In this document: piece by piece, positions 1 through 16,966 of the stretch
Layout of the letters: every line of letters begins with the position of its first letter
Numbering within the stretch: the stretch's first letter is position 1
IMG/VR virus record: IMGVR_UViG_2703718855_000004
DNA: 16,966 nucleotides
Strand: one strand, 5' to 3'
Origin: a virus
Taxonomy: Duplodnaviria; Heunggongvirae; Uroviricota; Caudoviricetes
Position numbers and translations under genes: made by a program
Notes under the pieces: model-generated
Told to the model about the DNA's origin: nothing
Database searches by the model: none
The model's input: only the letters and a program-made list of their open reading frames with translations

Positions 1-279
1 TCAGTATCTCGATAAGCGCAGAGAAATGATGCAGTGGTGGGCGGATTGGCTTGATGAAAAAGTGGAGTAATCCGGACCGTACTTCTTTATCCAGGCATAA
101 AGGCTGTGGGTGGTGATATCGAGACGTGTTGCAACGCTGGCAACAGAATAACCGCGATCAACAACCTGTTTGACTGCTTCAGTTTTAAACTCTTCGGGAT
201 AACGCTTACCGCTCATGGGCACCTCTCTTTAAGCCATCTTAAATGACTCTGAGGTGTCTGTTAAACCCGTGGCGATTCA
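1..279 (-). mobile_element. IS3-family insertion sequence, 5' end only: terminal region plus OrfA N-terminal helix-turn-helix fragment (ORF 1..222)
   Basis: ORF 1..222 translates to MPMSGKRYPEEFKTEAVKQVVDRGYSVASVATRLDITTHSLYAWIKKYGPD..., the HTH N-terminus typical of IS3-family OrfA. After about codon 51 (near nt 70) the frame no longer looks like the family. Read on the minus strand, the sequence upstream of the ATG begins TGAATCGCCACGG at nt 279, an IS-end-like TG terminus. Confidence 0.55.
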
Positions 280-772
280 AAACTGCGTGTTACGTTCGCC
301 CTGGACTGTTGCGATCGTGAAGCCATAGACTGGGCCGCAAGCACGGGAGGTTACGATAAAGCGACAGTGCAGGATGTCATGTTAGGAGCGATAGAAAAAC
401 GCTTTGGCGATAAAGTACCGGAACAGTCCATCCAGTGGCTGACAGATAACGGTTCAGCGTATAGAGCGCATGAAACATGGCAGTTCGCCAGAGAGTTGAA
501 TCTGGAGCCCTGCACAACGGCAATCAGCAGTCCTCAGAGTAATGGAATGGCAGAAAGGTTCGTGAAAACGATGAAGGAAGACTACATCGCGTTCATGCCG
601 AAACCGAATGTAAGAACGGCATTGCATAATCTTGCAGTGGCGATCGAACATTACAATGAAAACCATCCGCACAGTGCGTTGGGTTATCGCTCTCCGCGAG
701 AATATCGACGTCAGCGGGTAACGTTAACTTAAGATACACCCCCTGTCTGGAAATAAGGGGGCAAGAACAATG
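280..772 (+). mobile_element. IS2-like (IS3 family) element, 3' portion: 5'-truncated transposase OrfB (C-terminal part of DDE core) plus right terminal inverted repeat
   Basis: In-frame translation from nt 280 (ORF track 367..732) gives ...[17 protein letters not shown]...[11 protein letters not shown]...[37 protein letters not shown], resembling the C-terminus of IS2 InsD. Downstream TGTCTGGAAATAAGGGGGCAAG resembles the IS2 right end. The N-terminal part with the first catalytic Asp is absent. Confidence 0.65.
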
Positions 773-773
773 A

Positions 774-1526
774 TCAGATTCCCTGGTGAGTAAGAATTTT
801 ACTTTCTGAACTGCTCTGAGAGTATTGACTTGGAGAAACACCAAAATAACGTCTAAATACATAAGTAAAGTATGAGACACTGGCATAACCACAGACCTTA
901 GCTACTTTACTAATAGGATAACAACGAGTGCTGAGTAAATATTCAGCCATTTGCATCCTCTCATCAAGTATGATCTTACTGAATGATACCCCCTCTTCTT
1001 TCAATTTCCTCTTTAGTAAACTTTCGCTGAGATATAATCTTGATGATATATCCTTAAGACGCCATGGTGCAGATAAATCCGTATGAATAATCGTTTTAAC
1101 TTTAGCCCCTGTGCTTTTCAAACATTCAAACAGAAATACTCCAAATTGTTTTTCAGAAGAAAATGCAGAGAGACATGTAAAAGCAATAGACTCATCAAAA
1201 ATTTCTATGTATTCAGCACAGTGATTAGCCCAACTAATTAATCCTTTAATTAAACTGAAGTCAGCAAAGTTTATTTTTAAATAAGATGGATATTCCCTAC
1301 AATCAGAAATATCCCTTAAGTTATTAGCTTTCAAATAGCGACTAATAAACTCAGCGCCAAAATCCGCCACTATCACTCTTTCAGGATATGTCAGGAAAAA
1401 ATCTCTAGAGCTAGAGTCGACAAGTACAGATGAACCTCTCTCCAGAAACACACTCTCTTTTCCGAAATAAACATCAAAGGACTCCAAAATCAATATAACT
1501 GAACATGTAGTTGCCATATCATCCAC
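774..1526 (-). CDS. AraC/XylS-family transcriptional regulator, YdeO/AppY/GadX-like
   Basis: 250-aa ORF. The C-terminus ...PWRLKDISSRLYLSESLLKRKLKEEGVSFSKIILDERMQMAEYLLSTRCYPISKVAKVCGYASVSYFTYVFRRYFGVSPSQY is the two-HTH AraC DNA-binding domain and aligns by eye with E. coli YdeO/AppY. The stop lies 2 nt from the IS2-like right end. Confidence 0.8.
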   Translation of the reverse strand: MDDMATTCSVILILESFDVYFGKESVFLERGSSVLVDSSSRDFFLTYPERVIVADFGAEFISRYLKANNLRDISDCREYPSYLKINFADFSLIKGLISWANHCAEYIEIFDESIAFTCLSAFSSEKQFGVFLFECLKSTGAKVKTIIHTDLSAPWRLKDISSRLYLSESLLKRKLKEEGVSFSKIILDERMQMAEYLLSTRCYPISKVAKVCGYASVSYFTYVFRRYFGVSPSQYSQSSSESKILTHQGI

Positions 1527-3021: not shown

Positions 3022-3603
3022 TTACCCTATAGGTGCTACTGGCCATTCAATATCCTGTGCAGTTGACGTATCAACACGGTTCAGCAATACCCGATACTTT
3101 TTCCAGGCTTCCAGCAACAAGGTTTCTTCCTCCGTTGCGATTTCCAGATCCACAGCATCCTGAAGCGGCGCTATATGCTCACTGGCTACCTGCATCAGGC
3201 TGTTTTTTGTTTCTTCCACCTCCCGGATCCGGAACAGTTTTTCTGCTTCCGTATCCTTCACCCAGGCTGTGCCGTTCCACTTCTGAAACTCCCCTTCCGG
3301 GGATAACCAGGTAACATTTTCCGGTAATGAGCCGAGTTCAGAAATAAATAACGCGTCCCCTGATGCCACGTCATAAACTGTTTTACCCCGATGGTCTTCA
3401 ACAAGATGCCACGATGACTCATCACTGTTGAAAACAGCCACGAAGCCAGCCGGAATATCTGGCGGTGCAATATCGGTACTGTTTGCTGGCAGACCTGTAT
3501 GAGGCGGAATATATGCATCACCTTCACCAATAAATTCATTAGTTCCGGCCAGCAGATTATAAATTTTTATGGTCCGTGGTTGTTCACTCATTCTGAATGC
3601 CAT
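3022..3603 (-). CDS. tfa: Tail fiber assembly protein Tfa (lambda-type)
   Basis: 193-aa [47 protein letters not shown]... is collinear over its full length with lambda Tfa as I recall it. Confidence 0.9.
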
Positions 3604-3848
3604 TAACCAACACGGGCAGACTTCACCACATTCACCTCGCGGATGTAGTCGCTGCCCATCGCATTCATGATGGCCCGCTGAAAGGGCAGTGTTTCCCAGC
3701 GCCCTTCCTGGTATGCGGATTCTTTCGGGAGATAGTAATTAGCATCCGCCCATTCAACGGCGGTCTGTGGCTCCGGCCTGAACAGTGAGCGAAGCCCGGC
3801 GCGGACAAAATGCCGCAGCCTGTTAACCTGACTGTTCGATATATTCAC
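3603..3848 (-). pseudogene. Terminase large subunit (gpA) N-terminal fragment, about 81 codons, stop overlapping the tfa start
   Basis: [81 protein letters not shown] matches the first ~81 residues of lambda gpA, then stops. The stop and the tfa ATG overlap (TAATG). The rest of A and all head and tail genes are missing. Confidence 0.85.
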
Positions 3849-4368
3849 TCAGCAACCCCGGTATCAGTTCATCCAGCGCGGCTGCTTTGTTCATGGCTTT
3901 GATGATATCCCGTTTCAGGAAATCAACATGTCGGTTTTCCAGTTCCGGAAAACGCCGCTGCACCGACAGGGGGATCCCGTCGAGAATACTGGCAATTTCA
4001 CCTGCGATCCGCGACAACACGAAAGTACAGAATGCGGTTTCCACCACTTCAGCGGAGTCTCTGGCATTCTTCAGTTCCTGTGCGTCGGCCTGCGCACGCG
4101 TAAGTCGATGGCGTTCGTACTCAATAGTCCCTGGCTGGAGATCTGCCTCGCTGGCCTGCCGCAGTTCTTCAACCTCCCGGCGCAGCTTTTCGTTCTCAAT
4201 TTCAGCATCCCTTTCGGCATACCATTTTATGACGGCGGCAGAGTCATAAAGCACCTCATTACCCTTGCCACCGCCTCGCAGAACGGGCATTCCCTGTTCC
4301 TGCCAGTTCTGAATGGTACGGATACTCGCACCGAAAATGTCAGCCAGCTGCTTTTTGTTGACTTCCAT
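3823..4368 (-). CDS. nohD: Terminase small subunit Nu1 (lambda-type)
   Basis: 181-aa ORF MEVNKKQLADIFGASIRTIQNWQEQGMPVLRGGGKGNEVLYDSAAVIKWYAERD... is full-length and collinear with lambda Nu1. Its 3' end overlaps the gpA fragment start as in lambda. The symbol is chosen by analogy with K-12 cryptic-prophage naming. Confidence 0.85.
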   Translation of the reverse strand: MEVNKKQLADIFGASIRTIQNWQEQGMPVLRGGGKGNEVLYDSAAVIKWYAERDAEIENEKLRREVEELRQASEADLQPGTIEYERHRLTRAQADAQELKNARDSAEVVETAFCTFVLSRIAGEIASILDGIPLSVQRRFPELENRHVDFLKRDIIKAMNKAAALDELIPGLLSEYIEQSG

Positions 4369-4600
4369 TGTTCATTCCACGGACAAAAACAGAGAAAGGA
4401 AACGACAGAGGCCAAAAAGCTCGCTTTCAGCACCTGTCGCTTCCTTTCTTTTCAGAGGGTATTTTAAATAAAAACATTAAGTTATGACGAAGAAGAACGG
4501 AAACGCCTTAAACCGGAAAATTTTCATAAATAGCGAAAACCCGCGAGGTCGCCGCCCCGTAACCTGTCGGATCGCCGGAAAGGACCCGCAAAATGATAAT
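4369..4600. other. cos site (cosB, cosN, cosQ side), lambda-type; 12-nt cohesive-end sequence at 4546..4557
   Basis: The reverse complement of 4369..4577 reads ...CGACAGGTTACG|GGGCGGCGACCTCGCGGGTTTTCGCTATTTATGAAAATTTTCCGGTTTAAGGCG...TTTGTCCGTGGAATGAACA, matching the joined lambda right end and left end upstream of Nu1. Confidence 0.75.
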
Positions 4601-4756
4601 AATTATCATCTACATGTCACAACGTGCATCTACGCCATCAAACCACGTCAAATAATCAATTATGACGCAGGTATCGTATTAATTGATCTGCATCAACTTA
4701 ACGTAAAAACAACTTCAGACAATACAAATCAGCGACACTGAATACGGGGCAACCTC

Positions 4757-4951
4757 ATGTCAACGAAGAACAGAACCCGCAGAACAACAACCCGCAACAT
4801 CCGCTTTCCTAACCAAATGATTGAACAAATTAACATCGCTCTTGAGCAAAAAGGGTCCGGGAATTTCTCAGCCTGGGTCATTGAAGCCTGCCGTCGGAGA
4901 CTAACGTCAGAAAAGAGAGCATATACATCAATTAAAAGTGATGAAGAATGA
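4757..4951 (+). CDS. ylcI: Small conserved prophage protein (YlcI-like, DUF3950); possible ribbon-helix-helix fold
   Basis: 64-aa ORF MSTKNRTRRTTTRNIRFPNQMIEQINIALEQKGSGNFSAWVIEACRRRL... with a beta-strand, helix, G-x-S-x-N turn, helix pattern. Confidence 0.6.
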   Translation: MSTKNRTRRTTTRNIRFPNQMIEQINIALEQKGSGNFSAWVIEACRRRLTSEKRAYTSIKSDEE

Positions 4952-5115
4952 ACATCCCGCGTTCTTCCCTCCGAACAGGACGATATTGTAAATTCACTTA
5001 ATTACGAGGGCATTGCAGTAATTGAGTTGCAGTTTTACCACTTTCCTGACAGTGACAGACTGCGTGTTGGCTCTGTCACAGGCTAAATAGTTTGAATGAT
5101 TAGCAGTTATGGTGA

Positions 5116-5322
5116 TCAGTCAACCACCAGGGAATAATCCTTCATATTATTATCGTGCTTCACCAACGCTGCCTCAATTGCTCTGAATGCTTCCAGAGAC
5201 ACCTTATGTTCTATACATGCAATTACAACATCAGGGTAACTCATAGAAATGGTGCTATTAAGCATATTTTTTACACGAATCAGATCCACGGAGGGATCAT
5301 CAGCAGATTGTTCTTTATTCAT
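5116..5322 (-). CDS. ybcW: Small hypothetical prophage protein (YbcW-like)
   Basis: 68-aa [71 protein letters not shown], at the position expected in the DLP12-type gene order. Confidence 0.6.
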
Positions 5323-5607
5323 TTTGTCGCTCCATGCGCTTGCTCTTCATCTAGCGGTTAAAATATTACTTCAAATCTTTCTGTATGAAGATTTGAGCAC
5401 GTTGGCCTTACATACATCTGTCGGTTGTATTTCCCTCCAGAATGCCAGCAGGACCGCACTTTGTTACGCAACCAATACTATTAAGTGAAAACATTCCTAA
5501 TATTTGACATAAATCATCAACAAAACACAAAGAGGTCAGACCAGATTGAAACGATAAAAACGATAATGCAAACTACGCGCCCTCGTATCACATGGAAGGT
5601 TTTACCA

Positions 5608-6018
5608 ATGGCTCAGGTTGCCATTTTTAAAGAAATATTCGATCAAGTGCGAAAAGATTTAAACTGTGAATTGTTTTATTCTGAACTAAAACGTCACAAC
5701 GTCTCACATTATATTTACTATCTAGCCACAGATAATATTCACATCGTGTTAGAAAACGATAACACCGTGTTAATAAAAGGACTTAAAAAGGTTGTAAATG
5801 TTAAATTCTCAAGAAACACGCATCTTATAGAAACGTCCTATGATAGGTTGAAATCAAGAGAAATCACATTTCAGCAATACAGGGAAAATCTTGCTAAAGC
5901 AGGAGTTTTCCGATGGGTTACAAATATCCATGAACATAAAAGATATTACTATACCTTTGATAATTCATTACTATTTACTGAGAGCATTCAGAACACTACA
6001 CAAATCTTTCCACGCTAA
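5608..6018 (+). CDS. ybcV: Hypothetical prophage protein (YbcV-like, DUF1398)
   Basis: ORF track gives 5485..6018. I chose the internal start [47 protein letters not shown]... (136 aa), the length I recall for YbcV. The start is uncertain; 5485 and 5566 are alternatives. Confidence 0.65.
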
Positions 6019-6308
6019 ATCATAACGTCCGGTTTCTTCCGTGTCAGCACCGGGGCGTTGGCATAATGTAATACGTGTACGCGCTAAACCCTGTGTGCAT
6101 CGTTTTTAATTATTCCCGGACACTCCCGCAGAGAAGTTCCCCGTCAGGGCTGTGGACATAGTTAATCCGGGAATACAATGACGATTCATCGCACCTGACA
6201 TACATTAATAAATATTAACAATATGAAATTTCAACTCATTGTTTAGGGTTTGTTTAATTTTCTACACATACGATTCTGCGAACTTCAAAAAGCATCGGGA
6301 ATAACACC

Positions 6309-6602
6309 ATGAAAAAAATGCTACTCGCTACTGCGCTGGCCCTGCTTATTACAGGATGTGCTCAACAGACGTTTACTGTTCAAAACAAACCGGCAGCAGT
6401 AGCACCAAAGGAAACCATCACCCATCATTTCTTCGTTTCTGGAATTGGGCAGAAGAAAACTGTCGATGCAGCCAAAATTTGTGGCGGCGCAGAAAATGTT
6501 GTTAAAACAGAAACCCAGCAAACATTCGTAAATGGATTGCTCGGTTTTATTACTTTAGGCATTTATACTCCGCTGGAAGCGCGTGTGTATTGCTCACAAT
6601 AA
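6309..6602 (+). CDS. borD: Bor outer-membrane lipoprotein (lambda bor-type, serum-resistance moron)
   Basis: 97-aa ORF MKKMLLATALALLITGCAQQTFTVQNKPAAVAPKETITHHFFVSGIGQKK... with lipobox ITGC. It matches lambda Bor as recalled and lies opposite to the lysis genes as in lambda. Confidence 0.9.
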   Translation: MKKMLLATALALLITGCAQQTFTVQNKPAAVAPKETITHHFFVSGIGQKKTVDAAKICGGAENVVKTETQQTFVNGLLGFITLGIYTPLEARVYCSQ

Positions 6603-6610
6603 TTGCATGA

Positions 6611-6632
6611 GTTGCCCATCGATATGGGCAAC
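6611..6632. terminator. Palindromic hairpin between convergent bor and Rz
   Basis: GTTGCCCAT-cgat-ATGGGCAAC, a perfect 9-bp stem, lies between the bor stop (6602) and the Rz stop (6634). There is no strong U-tract on either side. Confidence 0.4.
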
Positions 6633-6633
6633 T

Positions 6634-7095
6634 CTATCTGCACTGCTCATTAATATACTTCTGGGTTCCTTCCAGTTGTTTTTGCATAGTGATCAGCCTC
6701 TCTCTGAGGGTGAAATAATCCCGTTCAGCGGTGTCTGCCAGTCGGGGGGAGGCTGCATTATCCACGCCGGAGGCGGTGGTGGCTTCACGCACTGACTGAC
6801 AGACTGCTTTGATGTGCAACCGACGACGACCTGCGGCAACATCATCACGCAGAGCATCATTTTCAGCTTTCGCATCAGCTAACTCCTTCGTGTATTTTGC
6901 ATCGAGCGCAGCAACATCACGCTGACGCATCTGCATGTCAGTAATTGCCGCGTTCGCCAGCTTCAGTTCTCTGGCATTTTTGTCGCGCTGGGCTTTGTAG
7001 GTAATGGCGTTATCACGGTAATGATTAACAGCCCATGACAGGTAGACGATGATGCAGATAACCAGAGCGGAGATAATCGCGGTTACTCTGTTCAT
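6634..7095 (-). CDS. rzpD: i-spanin Rz (inner-membrane spanin subunit)
   Basis: 153-aa product [55 protein letters not shown]... has an N-terminal TM segment and coiled coil. The start was chosen at MNRV, 4 codons inside the ORF-track start. It overlaps the endolysin 3' end. Confidence 0.85.
6693..6875 (-). CDS. rzoD: o-spanin Rz1 lipoprotein, embedded in the +1 frame of Rz
   Basis: 60-aa [63 protein letters not shown], with lipobox VVGC and a proline-rich body, lies entirely inside Rz in another frame. Confidence 0.8.
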
Positions 7096-7589
7096 TGCTG
7101 ACCCCACAAACAGATTTCACGCTCAATCTCACGACGAGTCATGAGACCTTTCCATTGCTTACCGCCAGCATATGTCCAGCGACGTAGCTGATCACATGCG
7201 CCTTTGATATCGCCCTGGTTTATTTTGCGAAGAAGCGTCGATGTTCTGAAATTGCCAGCACCCACGTTGTAAACGAATGAGTAAAGAGCGCCGCGCGTTG
7301 TTTCCGGTATATCGACTTTGATGTACGGGTTAATTTGTCTGGCGACAGTGGCAAGGTCTTTATTCAAGAGTGCTTTGCATTCTGCTTTGGTATACGTTTT
7401 ACCGAGCATGATGTCTTTTCCGGTGTGTCCGTGACATACAGTCCATACGCCAACGATATCTTTGTATGGTACGTAGCTGACACCTTCCAGACCATCGTTA
7501 CCACTTGGGCCAGTAATTAACACTGATGCTATAGCAATTGCTCCGCCACCAATAGCAGCAGCAACGGCTTTTCGTAATGATGGAGGCAT
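7092..7589 (-). CDS. rrrD: Endolysin (lysozyme R) with N-terminal signal-anchor-release-like hydrophobic segment, phage 21-type
   Basis: 165-aa [78 protein letters not shown]... has a Gly/Ala-rich N-terminal hydrophobic stretch and a lysozyme domain. Its start overlaps the holin stop. Confidence 0.9.
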
Positions 7590-7804
7590 TATTCACCTCT
7601 CGCAGCCTTGCGCTTATCTTCTTTAATCTTGAAATAAAGGTTTGTCAGGTACGTCAGCAGGCCAAATACCAGGCTACCCAGCACACCTATTGCTGCCCAC
7701 TGTGAGGGCGTGACTTTATCGAGCAGCTGTAAAAACCAGTAACCGGCACTACCTGCTGAGGTGCCATAGGCGACACCCGTTGTTAACTTATCCATGGATT
7801 TCAT
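7589..7804 (-). CDS. essD: Holin, phage 21 S-type (pinholin class), with dual-start motif M-K-S-M
   Basis: 71-aa product [71 protein letters not shown] with two TM segments. The ORF track extends upstream to 7849; I chose the MKSM start. Confidence 0.85.
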
Positions 7805-7930
7805 AACCCCACCTCGCAGACAAAGCGGGTGTAAATTGAGGGAATACAACGTATCGCAAAAAAGCAGAAACGTAACAGACTCGGAGTCAGTGAATAACTC
7901 AGGTATTGGGTTATCAGCTAATATCGAGAC

Positions 7931-7965
7931 TCAAAAAATGGAAAAACCCGCTCGACGGCGGGTTT
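7931..7965 (-). terminator. Rho-independent terminator upstream of the holin; candidate tR' of the late operon
   Basis: The minus strand reads AAACCCGCCGTCGAGCGGGTTT followed by TTCCATTTTTTG (stem ACCCGC/GCGGGT). It lies about 130 nt upstream of the holin start, where lambdoid phages place tR' between pR'/qut and S. Confidence 0.45.
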
Positions 7966-8390
7966 AAGCTGTGTGACGAAGTAACCACTCTTAACAGCAT
8001 AACCAATTTTTTACGTACGTAAACCACTAAATGATATTTGCGAGAATGCTACCGAGTATTGAAAACACCACTACAAATACATAAGCAAATCTCAACAAAT
8101 AACCAACAAATAATTTCCAGCGTTATTTTAGCTGGTTTAAATTGAATCTTCAAATTATAGAGCACTTATAAATAACAGCCATTAATATAAATTGGCTAAT
8201 AGATTTATTTTTATTCAGCCAAGAGCCATGAATAGGATTCGATAGAAAAAGTTCAGATAAAAATAGAGATCTACTTCACAAATCAAATGAGAAACCAAAA
8301 CTTACATCTTGAAATAATCACATTGATTAGATGAATATTTATCGCGCAGTGACATCATTTTTTAATAATAGTTCAAAAAAAGGGCTCACG

Positions 8391-9473
8391 ATGAAAAAAT
8401 TAACAGTGGCAATTTCTGCTGTAGCTGCATCAGTACTGATGGCGATGTCTGCTCAGGCAGCTGAAATTTATAATAAAGACAGTAACAAGCTGGATCTGTA
8501 CGGGAAAGTTAATGCTAAGCACTACTTCTCCTCTAATGATGCAGATGATGGTGATACTACTTATGCCCGTCTTGGCTTCAAAGGTGAAACCCAAATCAAC
8601 GATCAACTGACTGGTTTCGGTCAGTGGGAATATGAATTCAAAGGCAACCGCGCTGAATCTCAAGGTTCCTCCAAAGATAAAACCCGTCTTGCCTTCGCTG
8701 GCCTGAAATTCGGTGACTACGGCTCCATCGATTATGGCCGTAACTACGGTGTAGCATACGATATTGGTGCATGGACCGACGTTCTGCCAGAATTCGGTGG
8801 CGATACCTGGACCCAAACAGATGTATTCATGACTGGTCGCACCACAGGTGTTGCAACTTATCGTAACAATGACTTCTTTGGTCTGGTTGATGGTCTGAAC
8901 TTTGCTGCTCAGTATCAGGGTAAAAATGACCGCACTGACGTAACTGAAGCTAATGGTGATGGTTTCGGTTTCTCCACTACTTATGAGTATGAAGGATTCG
9001 GTGTAGGTGCAACCTATGCTAAATCTGACCGCACTAATAATCAGGTTATCTACGGTAACAACAGCCTGAATGCATCTGGTCAAAATGCTGAAGTATGGGC
9101 AGCTGGTCTGAAATATGATGCGAACAACATCTATCTGGCTACCACCTATTCTGAAACCCAGAACATGACTGTTTTTGGTAATAACCATATTGCCAACAAA
9201 GCACAAAACTTCGAAGTAGTTGCACAATATCAGTTCGACTTCGGTCTGCGTCCGTCCGTTGCTTACCTGCAATCTAAAGGAAAAGACTTGGGTGCGTGGG
9301 GTGATCAGGACCTGGTTGAATATATTGATGTAGGTGCAACCTATTACTTCAACAAAAATATGTCCACTTTTGTTGATTACAAAATCAACCTGATTGATAA
9401 GAGCGATTTCACGAAAGCATCTGGCGTTGCTACCGATGATATCGTTGCTGTAGGTATGGTTTACCAGTTCTAA
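8391..9473 (+). CDS. nmpC: General porin of the OmpC/OmpF/PhoE family, prophage-encoded (NmpC/Lc-type), apparently intact
   Basis: 360-aa product [23 protein letters not shown]|[23 protein letters not shown]... has a signal peptide, the porin N-terminal motif, and a C-terminal ...GMVYQF with terminal Phe typical of OM beta-barrels. The start was chosen at 8391, not the ORF-track 8331. Confidence 0.9.
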
Positions 9474-9636
9474 TTTGATTACTAAAAGATATGTTGCGGG
9501 AGGCTTTGCCTCCCCAACATATAAGTGGCTCCCTCAAGCCACTTCCTTTAGGAGCACAACCTTGCTTCTAACTATATAAACCTTCTGTTATATATTACCC
9601 TTTATTTTTGGGGGCGTCTCAACGCCCCATTTTTAA
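9474..9636 (+). ncRNA. Structured 3' region downstream of the porin gene; possible IpeX-like small RNA (tentative)
   Basis: Three consecutive hairpins: ATGTTGCGGGAGGC-tttg-GCCTCCCCAACAT (9491..9520), AGTGGCT-ccctca-AGCCACT, and the terminator GGGGCG-tctcaa-CGCCCC plus ATTTTT. A porin-regulating sRNA (IpeX) is reported at the 3' end of nmpC in DLP12. The identity is from memory and the ends are not mapped. Confidence 0.3.
9603..9636. terminator. Bidirectional rho-independent terminator between convergent nmpC and Q genes
   Basis: TTATTTTTG-GGGGCG-tctcaa-CGCCCC-ATTTTT: a GC stem flanked by T-runs on both strands. Confidence 0.65.
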
Positions 9637-9661
9637 TAATTTTTAGTAAACAATTGGCATA

Positions 9662-10045
9662 TTAATTAGAGTTATTAACAACGATATCCATCTCTAACCG
9701 GATATCTAATGCCATTAACATCCCTTCAATTATACCCTCAGCCTTCTGTAACCTTTTCCCGATATAACCATCAGAGCAGCAATGCTTACCTGCCAGTGAC
9801 ATGAATGTCATACCGACTACATAATAATCTACTAATAAATCGTGCAAATCGCTGTTGTTCTTTTTCAGACGGGCCATGCACCCGCAAATGATCATCGCGT
9901 CATCGTCACAACATTGCGGGCGAGATTTTACTTTTGAAGTAATTAATCCCTTAAAACCGGCGGCAATGGACGACCAGGTCACATCTTCATGATTATTAGC
10001 CGCCCACGCTCCCCAACGCTCAAGAACCATCTGAATATCACGCAT
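9662..10045 (-). CDS. quuD: Late-gene antiterminator Q (phage 82/21-type, QuuD-like)
   Basis: Product [71 protein letters not shown]... (127 aa from the second Met; the ORF track starts 5 codons upstream). It has Cys-rich zinc-binding motifs and sits downstream of rusA as in DLP12. Confidence 0.85.
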
Positions 10046-10130
10046 CAACTTACTCCACAAAAATCAGACCAGAACGCCAATTACAAGCAAAAATCAATAA
10101 AACAGTATTAGTTGATTGTTATCTCTGACT

Positions 10131-10253
10131 TCATACTCCTGCTCCTGTCAGGGTTTTGGCGTAATTCCTCAGTATTCGGTAATCGGTCAAAACAGAACTG
10201 GGGAAACGATATAAGCGCAGGCGCATCCAGCGGTGGCGAAGAAGTTCTGCCAT
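10131..10253 (-). CDS. Small ORF between rusA and Q (YlcG-like position)
   Basis: My translation: MAELLRHRWMRLRLYRFPSSVLTDYRILRNYAKTLTGAGV (40 aa), below the ORF-track cutoff. Called on position only. Confidence 0.35.
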   Translation of the reverse strand: MAELLRHRWMRLRLYRFPSSVLTDYRILRNYAKTLTGAGV

Positions 10254-10267
10254 ATTAAACTCAAACA

Positions 10268-10630
10268 TCATTCATTCCCCATTTCGGTGATGGTCAGTTC
10301 CAGCCTCCCACCTTTGGTAACAGGCATCTTCACAACGCGGTAATCAACGACCTGAGCATCATCCAGCCAGAAACCTGCTTTGGTGAGTGCGTCAAAAGCG
10401 GCTTTTTGCAGATTATCCAGGTCACGGCGACGGCGATCCGGCATGTGGCACTCAATACGGATTTTCACTGGCATAGCCAGGCCGATATCCAGCATTGCGT
10501 TTTTAATGATTCGGGTGACGTTATCGCGGTATGCCTGCCCTTCTGCGCTGATGTGTGTGCGCCCGCGATTATGGCGGTAATAGCGATTATTGCTCGGAGG
10601 CCAGGGTAATGTGATGCTGTAGGTATTCAC
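10268..10630 (-). CDS. rusA: Holliday-junction resolvase RusA
   Basis: 120-aa [123 protein letters not shown] matches RusA. Confidence 0.92.
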
Positions 10631-10917
10631 GCCTTAATAACCCCCTCTTTCAGCCAGATAACCTGTGTTCTCGCCATACCTTCCAGCGCGCATTCTTTTG
10701 CATATGCAGCATCGACAAAATGTGTGCGGCGGTCGATTTCGTCGTGGCAGGCAGAACATGCAATGGTGGCAATCAGGTCTGGCGGTTTCGTACCGGTGCC
10801 GCACAATCCAGTCAGCCGGATATGTGCCAGTACAGACGTTTCAGGGTTGCCATTACATACGCCAGGGATTCTTACCTGGCATTCCCGACCACGCGCTGCT
10901 TTTCTCAAATCAGCCAT
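10627..10917 (-). CDS. ybcO: Nin-region protein YbcO (DUF1364, Cys-rich putative nuclease)
   Basis: 96-aa product [64 protein letters not shown]... (start 13 codons inside the ORF-track start). It overlaps rusA by 4 nt. Confidence 0.85.
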
Positions 10918-11072
10918 GACTCCTCCTTGCTGCCAGTCGCAACCATTTTTTATCAACCAGGCTGGCGGTATATCCGAGCAGTGTTGGTATTTCGGAAGGC
11001 TTCAGCTCCGGTTTACGCTTACGACGATTTGGTACTCTGTAGATGTGTCCGTTCATGACACGAATAAGCGGT
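10902..11072 (-). CDS. ninE: NinE protein
   Basis: My translation: [56 protein letters not shown] (56 aa). Its 3' end overlaps the ybcO start by 16 nt. Confidence 0.75.
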
Positions 11073-11079
11073 GTAGCCA

Positions 11080-11535
11080 TTACGCCTCCTGTTTGTCGCG
11101 GAGCTGCTGGAACTCGCAGCTCTGCGGAATAGTCAGGTGGCAGCCAATATTCACCGCCCAGGCTTCAACCTTACACAGGAAGATATACATCTCTCCGGTA
11201 TCAAGATCGGAGGTATGGCGTAACGACTGGATAGTAGTGATTTCGCCGGTTACGACATCAACCAGGTCCTTGGTTTCATAACCGAGGTATGTGTGTTTGA
11301 GAGCATCTTTTACCCATGCTGCGGTAGCGAACGATTTCCCCCTGCTGATGAGGTATTCACTGATTTCGCTGTACCACATGTGGCTGAGTGCATTCTGGGA
11401 AAGACTGCGTTTCTCACGCCACGGTTTAAGCACCATGCGAAAGCATTTTCCGTCCTCCAGATAAGGCTGGATCTGCTGGCCGATAGCGGTGAAGTTACCG
11501 CGATGCAGTTTGATGCCATCTTGTGGTAGGTTCAC
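11080..11535 (-). CDS. ybcN: NinB-family recombination protein (YbcN-like)
   Basis: 151-aa ORF containing ...[20 protein letters not shown]..., comparable to the R-x-RSLDQN motif of lambda NinB. It heads the ninE-ybcO-rusA cluster. Confidence 0.8.
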
Positions 11536-11725
11536 GCTTCACCTCCGCAGAGGTCAGACGCTGGATGCAAAAAATCGCAGGTGCATTTCTGCATCTGTGA
11601 AGGGAGAAGAGAGTTTGGATTGTATGTGCGCATAAACGTCCCCGTTTAGCGCAGAAGTCACCGGAGTTGTTCAAGCTCCGATGACTTTATTATTACGAAT
11701 TGATTTTACAAAATCAAAAGGTATG

Positions 11726-12178
11726 TTAGTGACGCGGGTCTGTTATTATGCGAGAAGGGTTTCCGTATAAAACAAGGACCTTACTTCCTTGAGTAAATAA
11801 CGGATCTTTGCCTTGAACAATGGTCATTAAATTCCCATTCTCAGTTTCGACAACATATTCCATGCCTGTTTGTTTTGTTGCTGAAGATTCGATTGCTGCC
11901 CCGGCAATACCACCAATGACTGCACCACCAACGGCACCAACGATATTAGAACGAACTCCCCCACCAAGCGCAGAACCAGCGGTTGCCCCCACGGCAGCCC
12001 CAGCAGTCCCGCCTAACGCGGAAGTCCCACTGATATCAACCCCCCTAGCACTAATAACTGTACCAGCGATAGTTCGATTAACCATGCCCACAGAGCCAAC
12101 AGAATAACTATTTGGCGATATATTTTGTGCGCATCCAACCAACACTAAGAGTGGAGCAATTACGAATAATCGCTTCAT
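11726..12178 (-). CDS. Outer-membrane lipoprotein with glycine-zipper domain, SlyB/Pcp-like
   Basis: 150 aa. Signal peptide with lipobox LVGC, then a long Gly/Ala zipper (GGTAGAAVGATAGSALGGGVRSNIVGAVGGAVIGGIAGAAI), then a C-terminal segment GMEYVVETENGNLMTIVQGKDPLFTQGSKVLVLYGNPSRI that aligns by eye with the E. coli SlyB C-terminus. The start overlaps the upstream gene's stop (ATGA). Confidence 0.8.
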   Translation of the reverse strand: MKRLFVIAPLLVLVGCAQNISPNSYSVGSVGMVNRTIAGTVISARGVDISGTSALGGTAGAAVGATAGSALGGGVRSNIVGAVGGAVIGGIAGAAIESSATKQTGMEYVVETENGNLMTIVQGKDPLFTQGSKVLVLYGNPSRIITDPRH

Positions 12179-12735
12179 TTAGCTACCCTAACAGGAAACA
12201 TTGGACGAGAAAGATCAACACTTTCTAATGCTTGCAAGAACTGCGTTATGTTGTTTTGCACCGCGCGATTAACAGATTCGCGTGCTCGAACAATACCGTA
12301 GAATGCGTAACTGGCTGGAACAGTACCGGTAGACTCAATATCCTGCGTATATATAATATCACCATTCGCACGGTTGATTATTTCATACCTTGCAATTGCT
12401 TTAGTTGTCATTGAAACACCAAAAGCAGGAACGTCAAGAGCCAACACTTTAACATTTAAGCTAACCGTATTTGGTGAACTATCACGAAAAATAGTCATTC
12501 GGTCGAGTGCTTCCTGCAAAGATTCACGCCAAATTGGAGTTATAGCCTCCATACCAGCAGTGATATCCCCTTTCTGCTCATCTGGACGAGCAAGTGATAC
12601 CGTTAATGACTTAATTTCAGCATCTATTTTTTTCTGGCTAACTCCCACGTTAGGTGTTGAAAAATTCAATGGTGGCACACTAGCGCAACCTGTTAAAGAA
12701 CCAATAATCATGGCTAATAATATTATCTTCTTCAT
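12175..12735 (-). CDS. Uncharacterized lipoprotein, first gene of a two-gene lipoprotein operon
   Basis: 186 aa. MKKIILLAMIIGSLTGC|ASVPP... has lipobox LTGC and a Shine-Dalgarno-like AAGG 8 nt upstream. I recognise no family. It is translationally coupled to the SlyB-like gene. Confidence 0.75.
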   Translation of the reverse strand: MKKIILLAMIIGSLTGCASVPPLNFSTPNVGVSQKKIDAEIKSLTVSLARPDEQKGDITAGMEAITPIWRESLQEALDRMTIFRDSSPNTVSLNVKVLALDVPAFGVSMTTKAIARYEIINRANGDIIYTQDIESTGTVPASYAFYGIVRARESVNRAVQNNITQFLQALESVDLSRPMFPVRVAK

Positions 12736-12991
12736 AAATTTACCTTATTGTTATAACCAAAGGAATTATAAAGTAAAAAAGTTCACTATCACTAGCCATT
12801 AACGACATCAATTTCAGAGAAACATGGTACTCATTTCCACAAATTTGACACAAGTCATTTTCACCTACATATTCCATCATACTTGATGCATATGTTATTG
12901 AAGCCTCTATCCTATCCGTTCATAATAGCAATAGTTACCCGGGTGATAGTACCTCTATGATTACTCGTCTTTCTGATTGATTGGATTAAAT

Positions 12992-13183
12992 ATGCGCGCC
13001 AAAATTTATCAACTTTCGTTATGGATATTTATTTCGTTTCTAGCGATCTATGCCTTTATTATCTATAAAGGTTCTTATATTGGAGTAGCATTGCATCAAA
13101 TTGCTTGGATCATCATTATTGCCTCTGGCTTGATTGCTAGGCTAACTAAACCAAAGCAAAAACCAATTTCGTCCAATAATTAG
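12992..13183 (+). CDS. Small hydrophobic ORF with two predicted TM helices (hypothetical)
   Basis: 63 aa from the ATG at 12992: MRAKIYQLSLWIFISFLAIYAFIIYKGSYIGVALHQIAWIIIIASGLIARLTKPKQKPISSNN. The ORF track starts at 12977 on a non-ATG codon. There is no convincing RBS, and the surrounding DNA is AT-rich and divergent from the lipoprotein operon. Confidence 0.3.
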   Translation: MRAKIYQLSLWIFISFLAIYAFIIYKGSYIGVALHQIAWIIIIASGLIARLTKPKQKPISSNN

Positions 13184-13340
13184 ACATGTATTAAAAAAAT
13201 GATATTTTTATGTACATAGTCTATTGAAAATTGCCGCGATAAAATGCCAACACCCGCTTCATCGCGGCACTCTGGCGACACTCCTTGAAAATCAGATTCG
13301 TGCTCACCTTTCCTTCCCGTTCTTCCCTGGTAGCGAACCG

Positions 13341-13789
13341 GTAATCATCCGATCTGCGTTACCGAGTGGATGGATGAATGCCGCCGCGAACCATTCAAAA
13401 CCCGCGAAGGCAGAGAAATTACGGGGCCGTGGCAGTCGCATCCCAAACGGATGTTACGGCATAAAGCCATGATTCAGTGTGCCCGTCTGGCCTTCGGATT
13501 TGCTGGTATCTATGACAAGGATGAAGCCGAGCGCATTGTCGAAAATACCGCATACACCGCAGAACGTCAGCCGGAACGCGACATTACTCCGGTTAACGAT
13601 GAAACCATGCAGGAGATTAACACTCTGCTGATTGCCCTGGACAAAACATGGGATGACGACTTATTGCCGCTCTGTTCCCAGATATTTCGCCGCGACATTC
13701 GCGCATCGTCAGAACTGACACAGGCCGAAGCAGTGAAAGCTCTTGGATTCCTGAAACAGAAAGCCACTGAGCAGAAGGTGGCAGCATGA
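13341..13789 (+). pseudogene. bet: bet (Red-beta recombinase), 5'-truncated; only the C-terminal ~149 codons remain
   Basis: From about 13341 the frame reads (G)NHPICVTEWMDECRREPFKTREGREITGPWQSHPKRMLRHKAMIQCARLAFGFAGIYDKDEAERIVENTAYTAERQ...KVAA, matching the C-terminal part of lambda Bet. There is an in-frame stop at 13331..13333 and unrelated sequence upstream. Confidence 0.85.
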
Positions 13790-14466
13790 CACCGGACATT
13801 ATCCTGCAGCGTACCGGGATCGACGTGAGAGCTGTCGAACAGGGGGATGATGCATGGCACAAATTACGGCTCGGCGTCATCACCGCTTCAGAAGTTCACA
13901 ACGTGATAGCCAAGCCCCGCTCAGGAAAGAAGTGGCCTGACATGAAAATGTCCTACTTCCACACCCTGCTGGCTGAGGTTTGCACCGGTGTGGCTCCGGA
14001 AGTTAATGCTAAGGCGCTGGCATGGGGAAAACAGTACGAGAACGACGCCAGAACCCTGTTTGAATTCACTTCCGGCGTGAATGTTACTGAATCCCCGATC
14101 ATCTATCGCGACGAAAGTATGCGCACCGCCTGCTCTCCCGATGGTTTATGCAGTGACGGCAATGGCCTTGAGCTGAAATGCCCGTTTACCTCCCGGGATT
14201 TCATGAAGTTCCGGCTCGGTGGTTTCGAGGCCATAAAGTCGGCTTACATGGCCCAGGTGCAGTACAGCATGTGGGTGACACGAAAAGATGCCTGGTACTT
14301 TGCCAACTATGACCCGCGTATGAAGCGTGAAGGACTGCATTATGTCGTGGTTGAGCGGGATGAAAAGTACATGGCGAGTTTTGACGAGATGGTGCCGGTG
14401 TTCATCGAAAAAATGGACGAGGCACTGGCTGAAATTGGTTTTGTATTTGGGGAGCAATGGCGATGA
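13786..14466 (+). CDS. exo: Lambda exonuclease (Red-alpha), full length
   Basis: 226-aa [68 protein letters not shown]...GEQWR is collinear with lambda Exo over its full length, with only a few substitutions from the recalled sequence. The start overlaps the bet stop (ATGA). Confidence 0.95.
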
Positions 14467-15548
14467 CGCATCCTCACGATAATATCCGGGTAGGCGCAAT
14501 CACTTTCGTCTACTCCGTTAACCTTTATATAAGAAACAATGGATATTACTGCTACAGGGACCCAAGGACGGGTAAAGAGTTTGGATTAGGCCGAGACAGG
14601 CGAATCGCAATCACTGAAGCTATACAGGCCAACATTGAGTTATTTTCAGGACACAAACACAAGCCTCTGACAGCGAGAATCAACAGTGATAATTCCGTTA
14701 CGTTACATTCATGGCTTGATCGCTACGAAAAAATCCTGGCCAGCAGAGGAATCAAGCAGAAGACACTCATAAATTACATGAGCAAAATTAAAGCAATAAG
14801 GAGGGGTCTGCCTGATGCTCCACTTGAAGACATCACCACAAAAGAAATTGCGGCAATGCTCAATGGATACATAGACGAGGGAAAGGCGGCATCAGCCAAG
14901 TTAATCAGATCAACACTGAGCGATGCATTCCGAGAGGCTATGGCTGAAGGCCATATAACAACAAACCCGGTCGCAGCCACTCGCGCTGCAAAATCAGAGG
15001 TAAGGAGATCAAGACTTACGGCTGACGAATACCTGAAAATTTATCAAGCAGCAGAATCATCACCATGTTGGCTTAGACTTGCAATGGAACTGGCTGTTGT
15101 TACCGGGCAGCGAGTTGGTGATTTATGCGAAATGAAGTGGTCTGATATCGTAGATGGATATCTTTATGTCGAGCAAAGCAAAACAGGCGTAAAAATTGCC
15201 ATCCCAACAACATTGCATGTTGATGCTCTCGGGATATCAATGAAGGAAACACTTGATAAATGCAAAAAGATTCTTGGCGGAGAAACCATAATTGCATCTA
15301 CTCGTCGTGAACCGCTTTCATCCGGCACAGTATCAAGGTATTTTATGCGCGCACGAAAAGCATCAGGTCTCTCCTTCGAAGGGGATCCGCCAACCTTTCA
15401 CGAGTTGCGCAGTTTGTCTGCAAGACTCTATGAGAAGCAGATAAGCGATAAATTTGCTCAACATCTTCTCGGGCATAAGTCGGACACCATGGCATCACAG
15501 TATCGTGATGACAGAGGCAGGGAGTGGGACAAAATTGAAATCAAATAA
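14457..15548 (+). CDS. int: Lambda-type integrase (tyrosine recombinase) with replaced N-terminus: 22 codons matching the start of lambda orf60a are fused in frame to Int from about residue 16
   Basis: 363-aa [25 protein letters not shown]|[27 protein letters not shown]... After the junction (nt ~14520) it is near-identical to lambda Int and retains the catalytic residues (R in VTGQRVGD, K in SKTGVK, H-x-x-R in [10 protein letters not shown] and Y in [11 protein letters not shown]). The start overlaps the exo stop. Confidence 0.88.
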
Positions 15549-15640
15549 TGATTTTATTTTGACTGATAGTGACCTGTTCGTTGCAACAAATTGATAAGCA
15601 ATGCTTTTTTATAATGCCAACTTAGTATAAAAAAGCAGGC
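15549..15640. other. attL prophage-host junction (B-O-P'); core O at 15622..15636, P' arm on the int side
   Basis: The reverse complement reads GCCTGCTTTTTTATACTAAGTTGGCATTATAAAAAAGCATTGCTTATCAATTTGTTGCAACGAACAGGTCACTATCAGTCAAAATAAAATCATTATTTGA: the lambda 15-bp core GCTTTTTTATACTAA with the P' arm on one side and the bacterial B half-site (GCCTGC) on the ybhC side. Confidence 0.88.
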
Positions 15641-15682
15641 TTCAACGGATTCATTTTTCTATTTCATAGCCCGGAGCAACCT

Positions 15683-16966
15683 GTGAACACATTTTCAGTT
15701 TCCCGTCTGGCGCTGGCATTGGCTTTTGGCGTGACGCTGACCGCCTGTAGCTCAACCCCGCCCGATCAACGTCCTTCTGATCAAACCGCGCCTGGTACCT
15801 CTTCTCGCCCGATTCTGTCGGCAAAAGAAGCGCAGAATTTCGATGCTCAACACTATTTTGCATCCCTGACACCAGGTGCTGCAGCGTGGAATCCTTCCCC
15901 GATTACCCTGCCTGCGCAACCTGACTTTGTTGTCGGCCCGGCGGGCACTCAAGGTGTAACGCATACCACGATTCAGGCGGCGGTAGATGCGGCAATTATC
16001 AAGCGTACCAACAAGCGCCAGTATATTGCCGTGATGCCTGGTGAGTATCAGGGAACGGTATATGTCCCTGCCGCTCCGGGTGGAATTACTCTGTACGGTA
16101 CAGGTGAAAAACCGATTGATGTGAAGATTGGGCTTTCCCTTGATGGTGGCATGAGCCCTGCCGACTGGCGTCACGACGTCAACCCGCGCGGCAAATATAT
16201 GCCAGGTAAACCAGCGTGGTATATGTACGATAGCTGCCAGAGCAAACGCAGCGACAGTATCGGTGTTCTCTGCTCTGCGGTCTTCTGGTCACAAAACAAT
16301 GGCCTGCAACTGCAAAATCTGACCATCGAAAACACGCTGGGCGATAGCGTAGATGCAGGTAACCATCCGGCGGTGGCACTGCGTACTGATGGTGACCAGG
16401 TACAGATTAACAACGTTAACATTCTCGGTCGTCAGAACACCTTCTTTGTCACCAACAGCGGTGTGCAGAACCGTCTGGAAACAAATCGTCAGCCGCGTAC
16501 GCTGGTGACCAACAGCTACATTGAAGGGGATGTGGATATCGTTTCTGGTCGCGGCGCAGTGGTGTTCGATAACACCGAATTCCGCGTGGTGAACTCACGT
16601 ACTCAGCAAGAAGCGTATGTGTTTGCACCGGCTACGCTGTCCAACATTTACTACGGTTTCCTCGCCGTAAACAGCCGTTTCAATGCTTTCGGTGATGGTG
16701 TGGCGCAACTGGGCCGCTCGCTGGATGTTGATGCCAATACCAACGGTCAGGTGGTGATCCGTGATAGCGCCATCAACGAAGGTTTTAACACGGCTAAACC
16801 GTGGGCCGATGCGGTGATCTCTAATCGTCCGTTTGCGGGTAATACCGGCAGCGTAGATGATAACGACGAAATACAGCGCAATCTGAATGACACTAACTAC
16901 AACCGCATGTGGGAATACAATAACCGCGGCGTGGGTAGTAAAGTGGTTGCAGAGGCGAAGAAGTAA
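15683..16966 (+). CDS. ybhC: YbhC, outer-membrane lipoprotein of the pectinesterase-like family (acyl-CoA thioesterase); host gene flanking the lambda attachment site
   Basis: 427-aa ORF from a GTG start. MNTFSVSRLALALAFGVTLTACSSTPPDQ... has lipobox LTAC and right-handed beta-helix-type repeats. It lies immediately outside the attL B arm. Confidence 0.88.
   Translation: MNTFSVSRLALALAFGVTLTACSSTPPDQRPSDQTAPGTSSRPILSAKEAQNFDAQHYFASLTPGAAAWNPSPITLPAQPDFVVGPAGTQGVTHTTIQAAVDAAIIKRTNKRQYIAVMPGEYQGTVYVPAAPGGITLYGTGEKPIDVKIGLSLDGGMSPADWRHDVNPRGKYMPGKPAWYMYDSCQSKRSDSIGVLCSAVFWSQNNGLQLQNLTIENTLGDSVDAGNHPAVALRTDGDQVQINNVNILGRQNTFFVTNSGVQNRLETNRQPRTLVTNSYIEGDVDIVSGRGAVVFDNTEFRVVNSRTQQEAYVFAPATLSNIYYGFLAVNSRFNAFGDGVAQLGRSLDVDANTNGQVVIRDSAINEGFNTAKPWADAVISNRPFAGNTGSVDDNDEIQRNLNDTNYNRMWEYNNRGVGSKVVAEAKK

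Follow-up and report, generated by a model that had tools for sequence, protein, structure and literature searches.

The closest described systems to the locus considered here are the Red system of phage lambda and DLP12, a defective prophage of E. coli K-12. In the absence of Gam, RecBCD competes for double-stranded DNA ends. Residues 1-177 of Red-beta constitute its DNA-binding and oligomerisation N-terminal domain (NTD), and residues 183-261, the C-terminal domain (CTD), bind Exo (Red-alpha) and SSB (PMC6393309). DLP12 lies at argU in the order intD-xisD-exoD'-peaD'-renD'...nohD-tfaD-appY; a single central deletion took its immunity and replication region, so that a recombination gene, itself truncated, now borders on a fragment of ren or P. 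Recombination between lambda and DLP12 occurs, and the phage can make use of DLP12 genes (PMC3945230). The locus presented in this work conforms to this known pattern of defective-prophage decay, and retains an intact exo gene next to a truncated bet.

The window, i.e. the whole 16,966-nt stretch of DNA that was analysed, is 100% identical over its entire length to the chromosome of E. coli VG48B2 (NZ_CP128584.1), and spans nearly the whole of a 16-kb cryptic lambdoid prophage integrated at att-lambda, between ybhB/bioA and ybhC (Table 1). Immunity, replication and most morphogenesis genes are gone: cI, cro, O and P are absent from the window, and all that is left of the late region is nohD, tfa and a fragment of the terminase. 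The left arm, which comprises 'bet, exo and int, shares 97-98% identity with lambda. The right arm is DLP12-like and colinear with K-12 DLP12 over ybcN, ninE, ybcO, rusA, ylcG, quuD, the porin gene, essD, rrrD, rzpD, bor, ybcV, ybcW, ylcI, nohD and the terminase fragment; tfa follows this block at lower identity. Like DLP12, the VG48B2 element is a non-excisable remnant. The two differ in their site and integrase (argU and intD in DLP12; att-lambda at ybhB/ybhC and a lambda-type int here), in their central deletion (from P to exo nt 26 in DLP12; from ren to bet codon 114 here, with exo whole) and in the genes next to it, since the slot held in DLP12 by the moron emrE-ybcK-ybcL-ybcM is occupied in VG48B2 by a moron of two lipoprotein-like ORFs and a 63-aa ORF. 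Of the two lipoprotein-like products, the 150-aa one gives weak glycine-zipper matches and the 186-aa one carries a YajG-family lipoprotein label in some RefSeq records.

Table 1. Features of the VG48B2 element (positions in the window unless stated otherwise)
Feature	Position	Strand	Remarks
attR core	225-239 nt left of window position 1		1 mismatch; adjoins ybhB
IS/transposase fragments	1-732		left end of the element; partial transposase and integrase-core pseudogenes
AraC-family regulator gene	774-1517		follows the IS fragments; appY-like position
DLP12-colinear block	3604-11719		96-97% nucleotide identity; K-12 counterparts 575786-581598 and 572282-574570
Porin gene	8331-9473		annotated ompC, nmpC homologue; intact here, K-12 nmpC split by IS5
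AT-rich cargo	11726-13220		beyond ren
Lipoprotein-like ORF	11726-12178	-	member of the 150-aa and 186-aa pair; moron between ren and ybcN
Lipoprotein-like ORF	12175-12735	-	member of the same pair; moron between ren and ybcN
Promoter-like sites	12845-12873, 12898-12926, 13181-13208	+	consensus matches only; the first two upstream of the 63-aa ORF
63-aa hydrophobic ORF	12992-13183	+	unannotated; AT-rich region; faces 'bet-exo
AT-rich hairpin	13181-13226		weak; without T-tract
ren' (3' fragment of ren, 123 nt)	13221-13343	-	lambda 40548-40449
ren'/'bet deletion junction	13339-13345		GGTAAT, 5-nt GTAAT microhomology; lambda 40449 joined to lambda 32473
'bet (5'-truncated Red-beta gene)	13343-13789	+	codons 114-261
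exo (lambda exonuclease, Red-alpha)	13786-14466	+	intact; 226 codons and stop
Recurrent deletion endpoint GCGTACCGG	13809-13817		exo nt 24-32; intact in the window
orf60a(1-19)-Int(15-356) in-frame fusion, 361 aa	14463-15548	+	start overlaps exo stop; junction 14519/14520
attL, exact att-lambda core GCTTTTTTATACTAA	15622-15636	-	adjoins ybhC

The truncation of bet corresponds to a simple internal deletion. Lambda 32474-40448 is missing, about 7,975 bp lambda-equivalent, and with it the 5' end of bet, gam, kil, cIII, N, pL, rexAB, cI, pR, cro, cII, O, P and the 5' end of ren. Nothing from this interval is present in the window, where gam, N and pL have no annotated feature, in agreement with the initial annotation, which had considered pL absent. 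The same annotation had placed the cut in bet at the border of a cargo insertion, which has to be corrected, since bet abuts ren' at the GTAAT microhomology. The ren fragment and bet lie on opposite strands, in keeping with the orientation of the rightward operon. The cargo insertion can be rejected as the cause of the truncation, because ren' separates it from bet and because relatives with a complete ren carry the cargo too, in the same place and together with part of P (e.g. strain 38). An assembly artefact was likewise discarded, the junction being identical in 18 complete E. coli genomes. Related prophages have undergone independent central deletions of their own, namely P'/'bet in strain 38, ren/P-gam in others and P'/'exo in DLP12 at argU. 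The endpoints of these deletions are arbitrary: all of them took the early control and replication genes, but the recombination gene that was cut is not always the same.

The initial annotation described exo as full length with very few changes, and this proved accurate. Its product aligns with lambda Exo over 226/226 residues (PDB 1AVQ/6M9K, also 3SLP; E about 1e-154) with 98% protein identity and only four differences (N168D, I189V, I202M and E205V). It belongs to the lambda exonuclease/YqaJ family of PD-(D/E)XK 5'-3' double-stranded DNA exonucleases, with a Pfam YqaJ match above the gathering score (E=5e-30). Inactivating substitutions at catalytic residues were looked for on the alignment and none was found: D119, E129 and K131, the latter being replaced in 3SM4, a crystal form without catalytic activity, are as in lambda Exo, and so are the 5'-phosphate/DNA contacts R28 and W24. 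Position 205 is not conserved, being Ala in the Laribacter homologue 3SYY. Moreover, only one residue (E205V) separates the orphan Exo from its counterpart in viable phages (ev207, PhiR47_2, PhiR63_2 and Stx2 phage 1717). By sequence, the protein thus looks enzymatically competent.

The situation of bet is different from that of the lambda gene. As announced (loss of the N-terminal ~110 codons), the gene is decapitated: 113 codons are missing and only residues 114-261 are left, which comprise the final 64 residues of the annealing domain, the linker and the complete CTD that binds Exo and SSB. These residues are 99% identical to lambda Red-beta, with one substitution (A255T), and match, from residue 114, the NTD construct solved by cryo-EM (7UJL) as well as the CTD structures 8TFU and 6M9K. 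The first in-frame ATG is M123, at 13370, which opens a 139-aa ORF (M123-A261). Compared with the lambda Red system, gene order is the same, the stop codon of bet overlaps the start codon of exo (ATGA) and both Exo and Bet 114-261 are near-identical; by contrast, Bet 1-113, gam, N and pL are deleted here. The window therefore does not hold a functional Red module, the Red-beta NTD being incomplete and gam and pL/N absent. No second copy of a lambda-type bet or exo was found in the VG48B2 genome at megablast sensitivity. Canonical Red recombination is impossible because the annealing domain of Red-beta is broken, Gam is gone and there is no second bet or exo copy. The earlier statement that Red-alpha without Red-beta cannot do Red recombination is therefore sound, given the extent of the NTD (residues 1-177; PMC6393309).

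Expression of exo could still take place at a low level. The gene has its own Shine-Dalgarno sequence (AAGGTGG, 5 nt upstream of the start). Since promoter-like sites are present upstream on the + strand, no intrinsic-terminator-like site was found in our scan on that strand before exo, and the AT-rich hairpin preceding 'bet is weak, low-level read-through from the AT-rich moron into 'bet-exo-orf60a'::int is plausible, and we infer that it may occur. The promoter and terminator scan of positions 12600-15700 revealed no enrichment, with 6 sites found vs 6.4 expected in shuffles.

The nearest relative that keeps its early region is the prophage of E. coli Z1323PEC0012, in which cI, cro, cII, O, cIII, kil, gam and a full bet are present and P is annotated as incomplete. 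Over the 1,125 nt of 'bet and exo, the window differs from it by two substitutions, one being exo E205V (GAG->GTG) and the other a synonymous change in 'bet codon 127. This prophage and that of ATCC 8739, both at att-lambda, share with the window lineage the left arm bet-exo-orf60a-orf63-traR-ea22-xis-int. In contrast to the window lineage, both keep full-length bet, gam, kil and cIII, and Z1323PEC0012 also cI, cro, cII and O. In 10 genomes carrying the ren'/'bet junction, 8 differences from the window were counted in about 48 kb compared, i.e. ~1.7e-4 per site (~2 per 10 kb), which corresponds to about 0.1 expected substitutions in exo per genome. An open exo frame is therefore the neutral expectation.

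Taken with the anatomy of the locus, its junctions and the repeated loss of exo in sister lineages described below, all of which are directly observed, this near-identity to a relative that keeps its early region leads us to consider that exo is carried as a passenger by a cryptic lambdoid prophage crippled only recently, its intactness resulting from recency (probability of roughly 0.8). A single microhomology-mediated deletion, from ren to bet codon 113, would have removed immunity, replication and early-left control together with pL, pR, N, kil and gam. Its left endpoint would have fallen in bet by chance, so leaving exo whole, and too little time would have elapsed for point mutations to strike a 681-nt gene. 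Further deletions would now be removing exo, as has already happened in most sister lineages. Any Exo produced would probably come from weak read-through from the upstream AT-rich moron, via the ribosome-binding site of exo itself; it might be a competent enzyme, with no selected cellular role and no part in Red recombination. Its most realistic significance might be that of spare parts for recombination with incoming lambdoid phages, because such phages recombine with DLP12 and use its genes (PMC3945230).

The ren'/'bet junction provides a diagnostic marker of this lineage. It was found in 18 complete genomes, and 6 further genomes keep its first 21 nt of 'bet (n=24). The fate of exo in these sister lineages is diverse. 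The gene is intact in 7/24 genomes (type A). In 4/24 (type B) a deletion starts at exo nt 28 and stops shortly upstream of the traR-like gene, and in 7/24 (type D; five were inspected and two sister isolates were assumed to match) one runs from nt 30 into ea22. In the remaining type (type C, 6/24), the rest of 'bet, the exo Shine-Dalgarno, the ATG and codons 1-9 are lost, and the first canonical start is a GTG at V14. Thus, exo has been deleted in 11 genomes by two different deletions and has lost its 5' end in 6, which amounts to 17/24 by three different deletions. A domesticated gene would be retained across the descendants of a defective ancestor, and exo is intact in only 7 of the 24.

These data bear on the alternative that Exo has been kept for a nuclease-only role, such as resecting DNA ends for RecA-dependent repair by the host, destroying linear DNA that enters the cell, or assisting or disturbing superinfecting phages. 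In favor of such a role, the reading frame is open, the catalytic residues are conserved and exo has a Shine-Dalgarno sequence to itself. Moreover, the exact Exo protein is widespread: it occurs in 585 blocks of a large assembly collection, a count that has no denominator, and lies in the same cryptic prophage in all 9 distinct places from 25 contigs examined, so that the intact-exo form is common and weak selection is conceivable. Two 5'-damaging events, type C and that of DLP12 in strain LD27-1, also leave an in-frame exo reading frame, which runs counter to the passenger view and might indicate that an Exo-like product is tolerated or beneficial. In LD27-1, where DLP12 is at argU, this frame is a 224-aa chimeric ORF (3347-4021 of the locus) whose first eight codons (MICATCCT) derive from P, read on the antisense strand, and whose remainder corresponds to Exo residues 11-226. 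Against a selected role, however, exo is lost or cut at its 5' end in most descendants via three apparently independent deletions, and divergence is so low that intactness needs no selection. Lineage-specific changes in exo are only non-synonymous, with two such substitutions (E205V, and L184P in the type-A genome 1332KP) and no synonymous one, numbers that are too few for dN/dS. Furthermore, Exo and three neighbouring cargo ORFs had no defence-system match in PADLOC at E<=0.01, the promoter signal is not above shuffled expectation, and RecBCD would compete for DNA ends in a cell without Gam. We therefore regard a nuclease-only role as improbable. Between the two explanations offered in the initial annotation, a recent event or selection for a nuclease-only role, the first is supported by the two nucleotides separating the window from Z1323PEC0012 and the ~0.1 expected changes, and the second is disfavored by the fate of exo in the sister lineages.

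The 'bet remnant raises a related possibility, in which the 139-aa 'Bet and Exo would form a new two-protein unit, either a tether to SSB or a decoy poisoning the Red system of incoming phages. Residues 183-261 of 'Bet are intact and one residue away from lambda, and the CTD alone is able to bind Exo and the C-terminal tail of SSB (PMC6393309). In addition, types B and D retain 'bet and have lost exo. The gene before exo has a Bet-CTD-like C-terminus in 22/22 full-length exo loci of other Enterobacteriaceae, even where its N-terminal part does not align with lambda Bet; in most of these prophages, the alignment to lambda Bet starts only around residues 127-190. The pattern is consistent with a CTD that binds Exo being inherited together with exo while the N-terminal domain of the annealase varies. 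On the other hand, M123 has no good ribosome-binding site upstream, 'bet is frameshifted in the carrier SCPM-O-B-12142 and deleted in type C, and 'Bet carries 55 residues (123-177) of a broken NTD and may misfold. Such a unit thus appears very improbable, and the reading of exo as a passenger is preferred here too.

The deletions that affect exo share an unexpected feature. Four rearrangements have an endpoint inside exo nt 24-32, namely those of types B, C and D and the ancestral DLP12 P'/'exo deletion (L003:4634, L018:3636, L005:4185 and L027:3366-3370 in the sister and DLP12 loci). The site, GCGTACCGG, lies 5 nt upstream of a GATC and is followed by GATCGA. The homologies at the endpoints are not the same: 2 nt at the left endpoint of type B (exo nt 28), ACC and a nearby ATCGA for type D (exo nt 30), GCGT(T)ACCG at the right endpoint of type C, and CCTGC..GTACC at the DLP12 P'/'exo junction in LD27-1. 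Since partners and directions differ, the four deletions appear to be independent. If endpoints were uniform over the 1.1 kb of 'bet-exo, the probability of three falling within 9 nt would be of the order of 2e-4, a rough estimate made post hoc. No hairpin or inverted repeat was found at the breakpoint (fold z = -0.38). It is possible, with the odds somewhat against it, that illegitimate recombination has a genuine hotspot at exo nt 24-32. The way in which Red modules decay in E. coli prophages would then be decided by a site-specific break or stall, and not by chance or selection.

The same deletions might alternatively reflect positive selection for loss instead of neutral decay, an orphan Exo without Bet and Gam being mildly harmful and actively purged. 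Indeed, the three secondary deletions, which seem independent, would all abolish normal exo expression; the ancestral DLP12 deletion also took the start of exo, and K-12 truncated the gene further. The DLP12 of K-12 has lost exo up to nt 401, exoD being a further truncation of the DLP12 form. Nevertheless, private deletions and IS insertions are equally frequent in the b-region beside exo (exo to int), a cluster of endpoints only 9 nt wide speaks for a mutational hotspot and not for selection, and the intact-exo form is common. Purging of a costly Exo is therefore quite improbable in our opinion, and this explanation is weaker than that of a hotspot. The DLP12 P'/'exo junction with a whole downstream exo was observed in about 118/5,426 genomes.

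The locus matters little for biology at large: it is a textbook snapshot of prophage decay, in which an intact gene beside a truncated partner is explained by recency. Its modest value lies in a well-resolved decay series at one locus, from the early-region relative to the ren'/'bet deletion and then to at least three independent exo losses and several b-region deletions. This series shows that prophage genes are erased by deletions and not by point mutations, and that nothing can be deduced about function from an open frame when the remnant is young.

A scan of GTDB species representatives for exo relatives revealed no further orphan exo and nothing on the breakpoint hotspot. The matches were mostly lambda control-DNA contamination in unrelated genomes, the others being distant Enterobacteriaceae prophages. 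Contigs with 97-100% identical lambda exo were found in Shewanella, Pseudomonas, Bradyrhizobium, Streptomyces, Paenibacillus and other assemblies, with a coverage mostly of 1-2x where the contig title states it, and three of them are about 48.4 kb long. They are almost certainly lambda control DNA.

Directly downstream of exo lies a second deletion, orf60a::int, which the initial annotation did not mention. Codon 19 of orf60a (DUF1317) is joined in frame to codon 15 of int at a TA microhomology. Relative to strain EC416, also of type A, 3,679 bp are deleted, with the loss of the 3' part of orf60a, orf63, the traR-like gene, ea22', DUF2513, xis and codons 1-14 of int; the N-terminal tail of Int, which is basic, is missing. 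Among 5,426 complete E. coli genomes, this junction is present only in VG48B2. The fusion is labelled 'DUF1317 family protein' by RefSeq, and 342 of its 361 residues are integrase. The b-region of the sister prophages carries many lineage-private lesions, such as IS1 insertions in 1332KP and P12b, an IS4 insertion in BR1220, a deletion from orf60a to xis in one sister prophage and the loss of the traR-like gene in another. In all carriers, ea22 is frameshifted.
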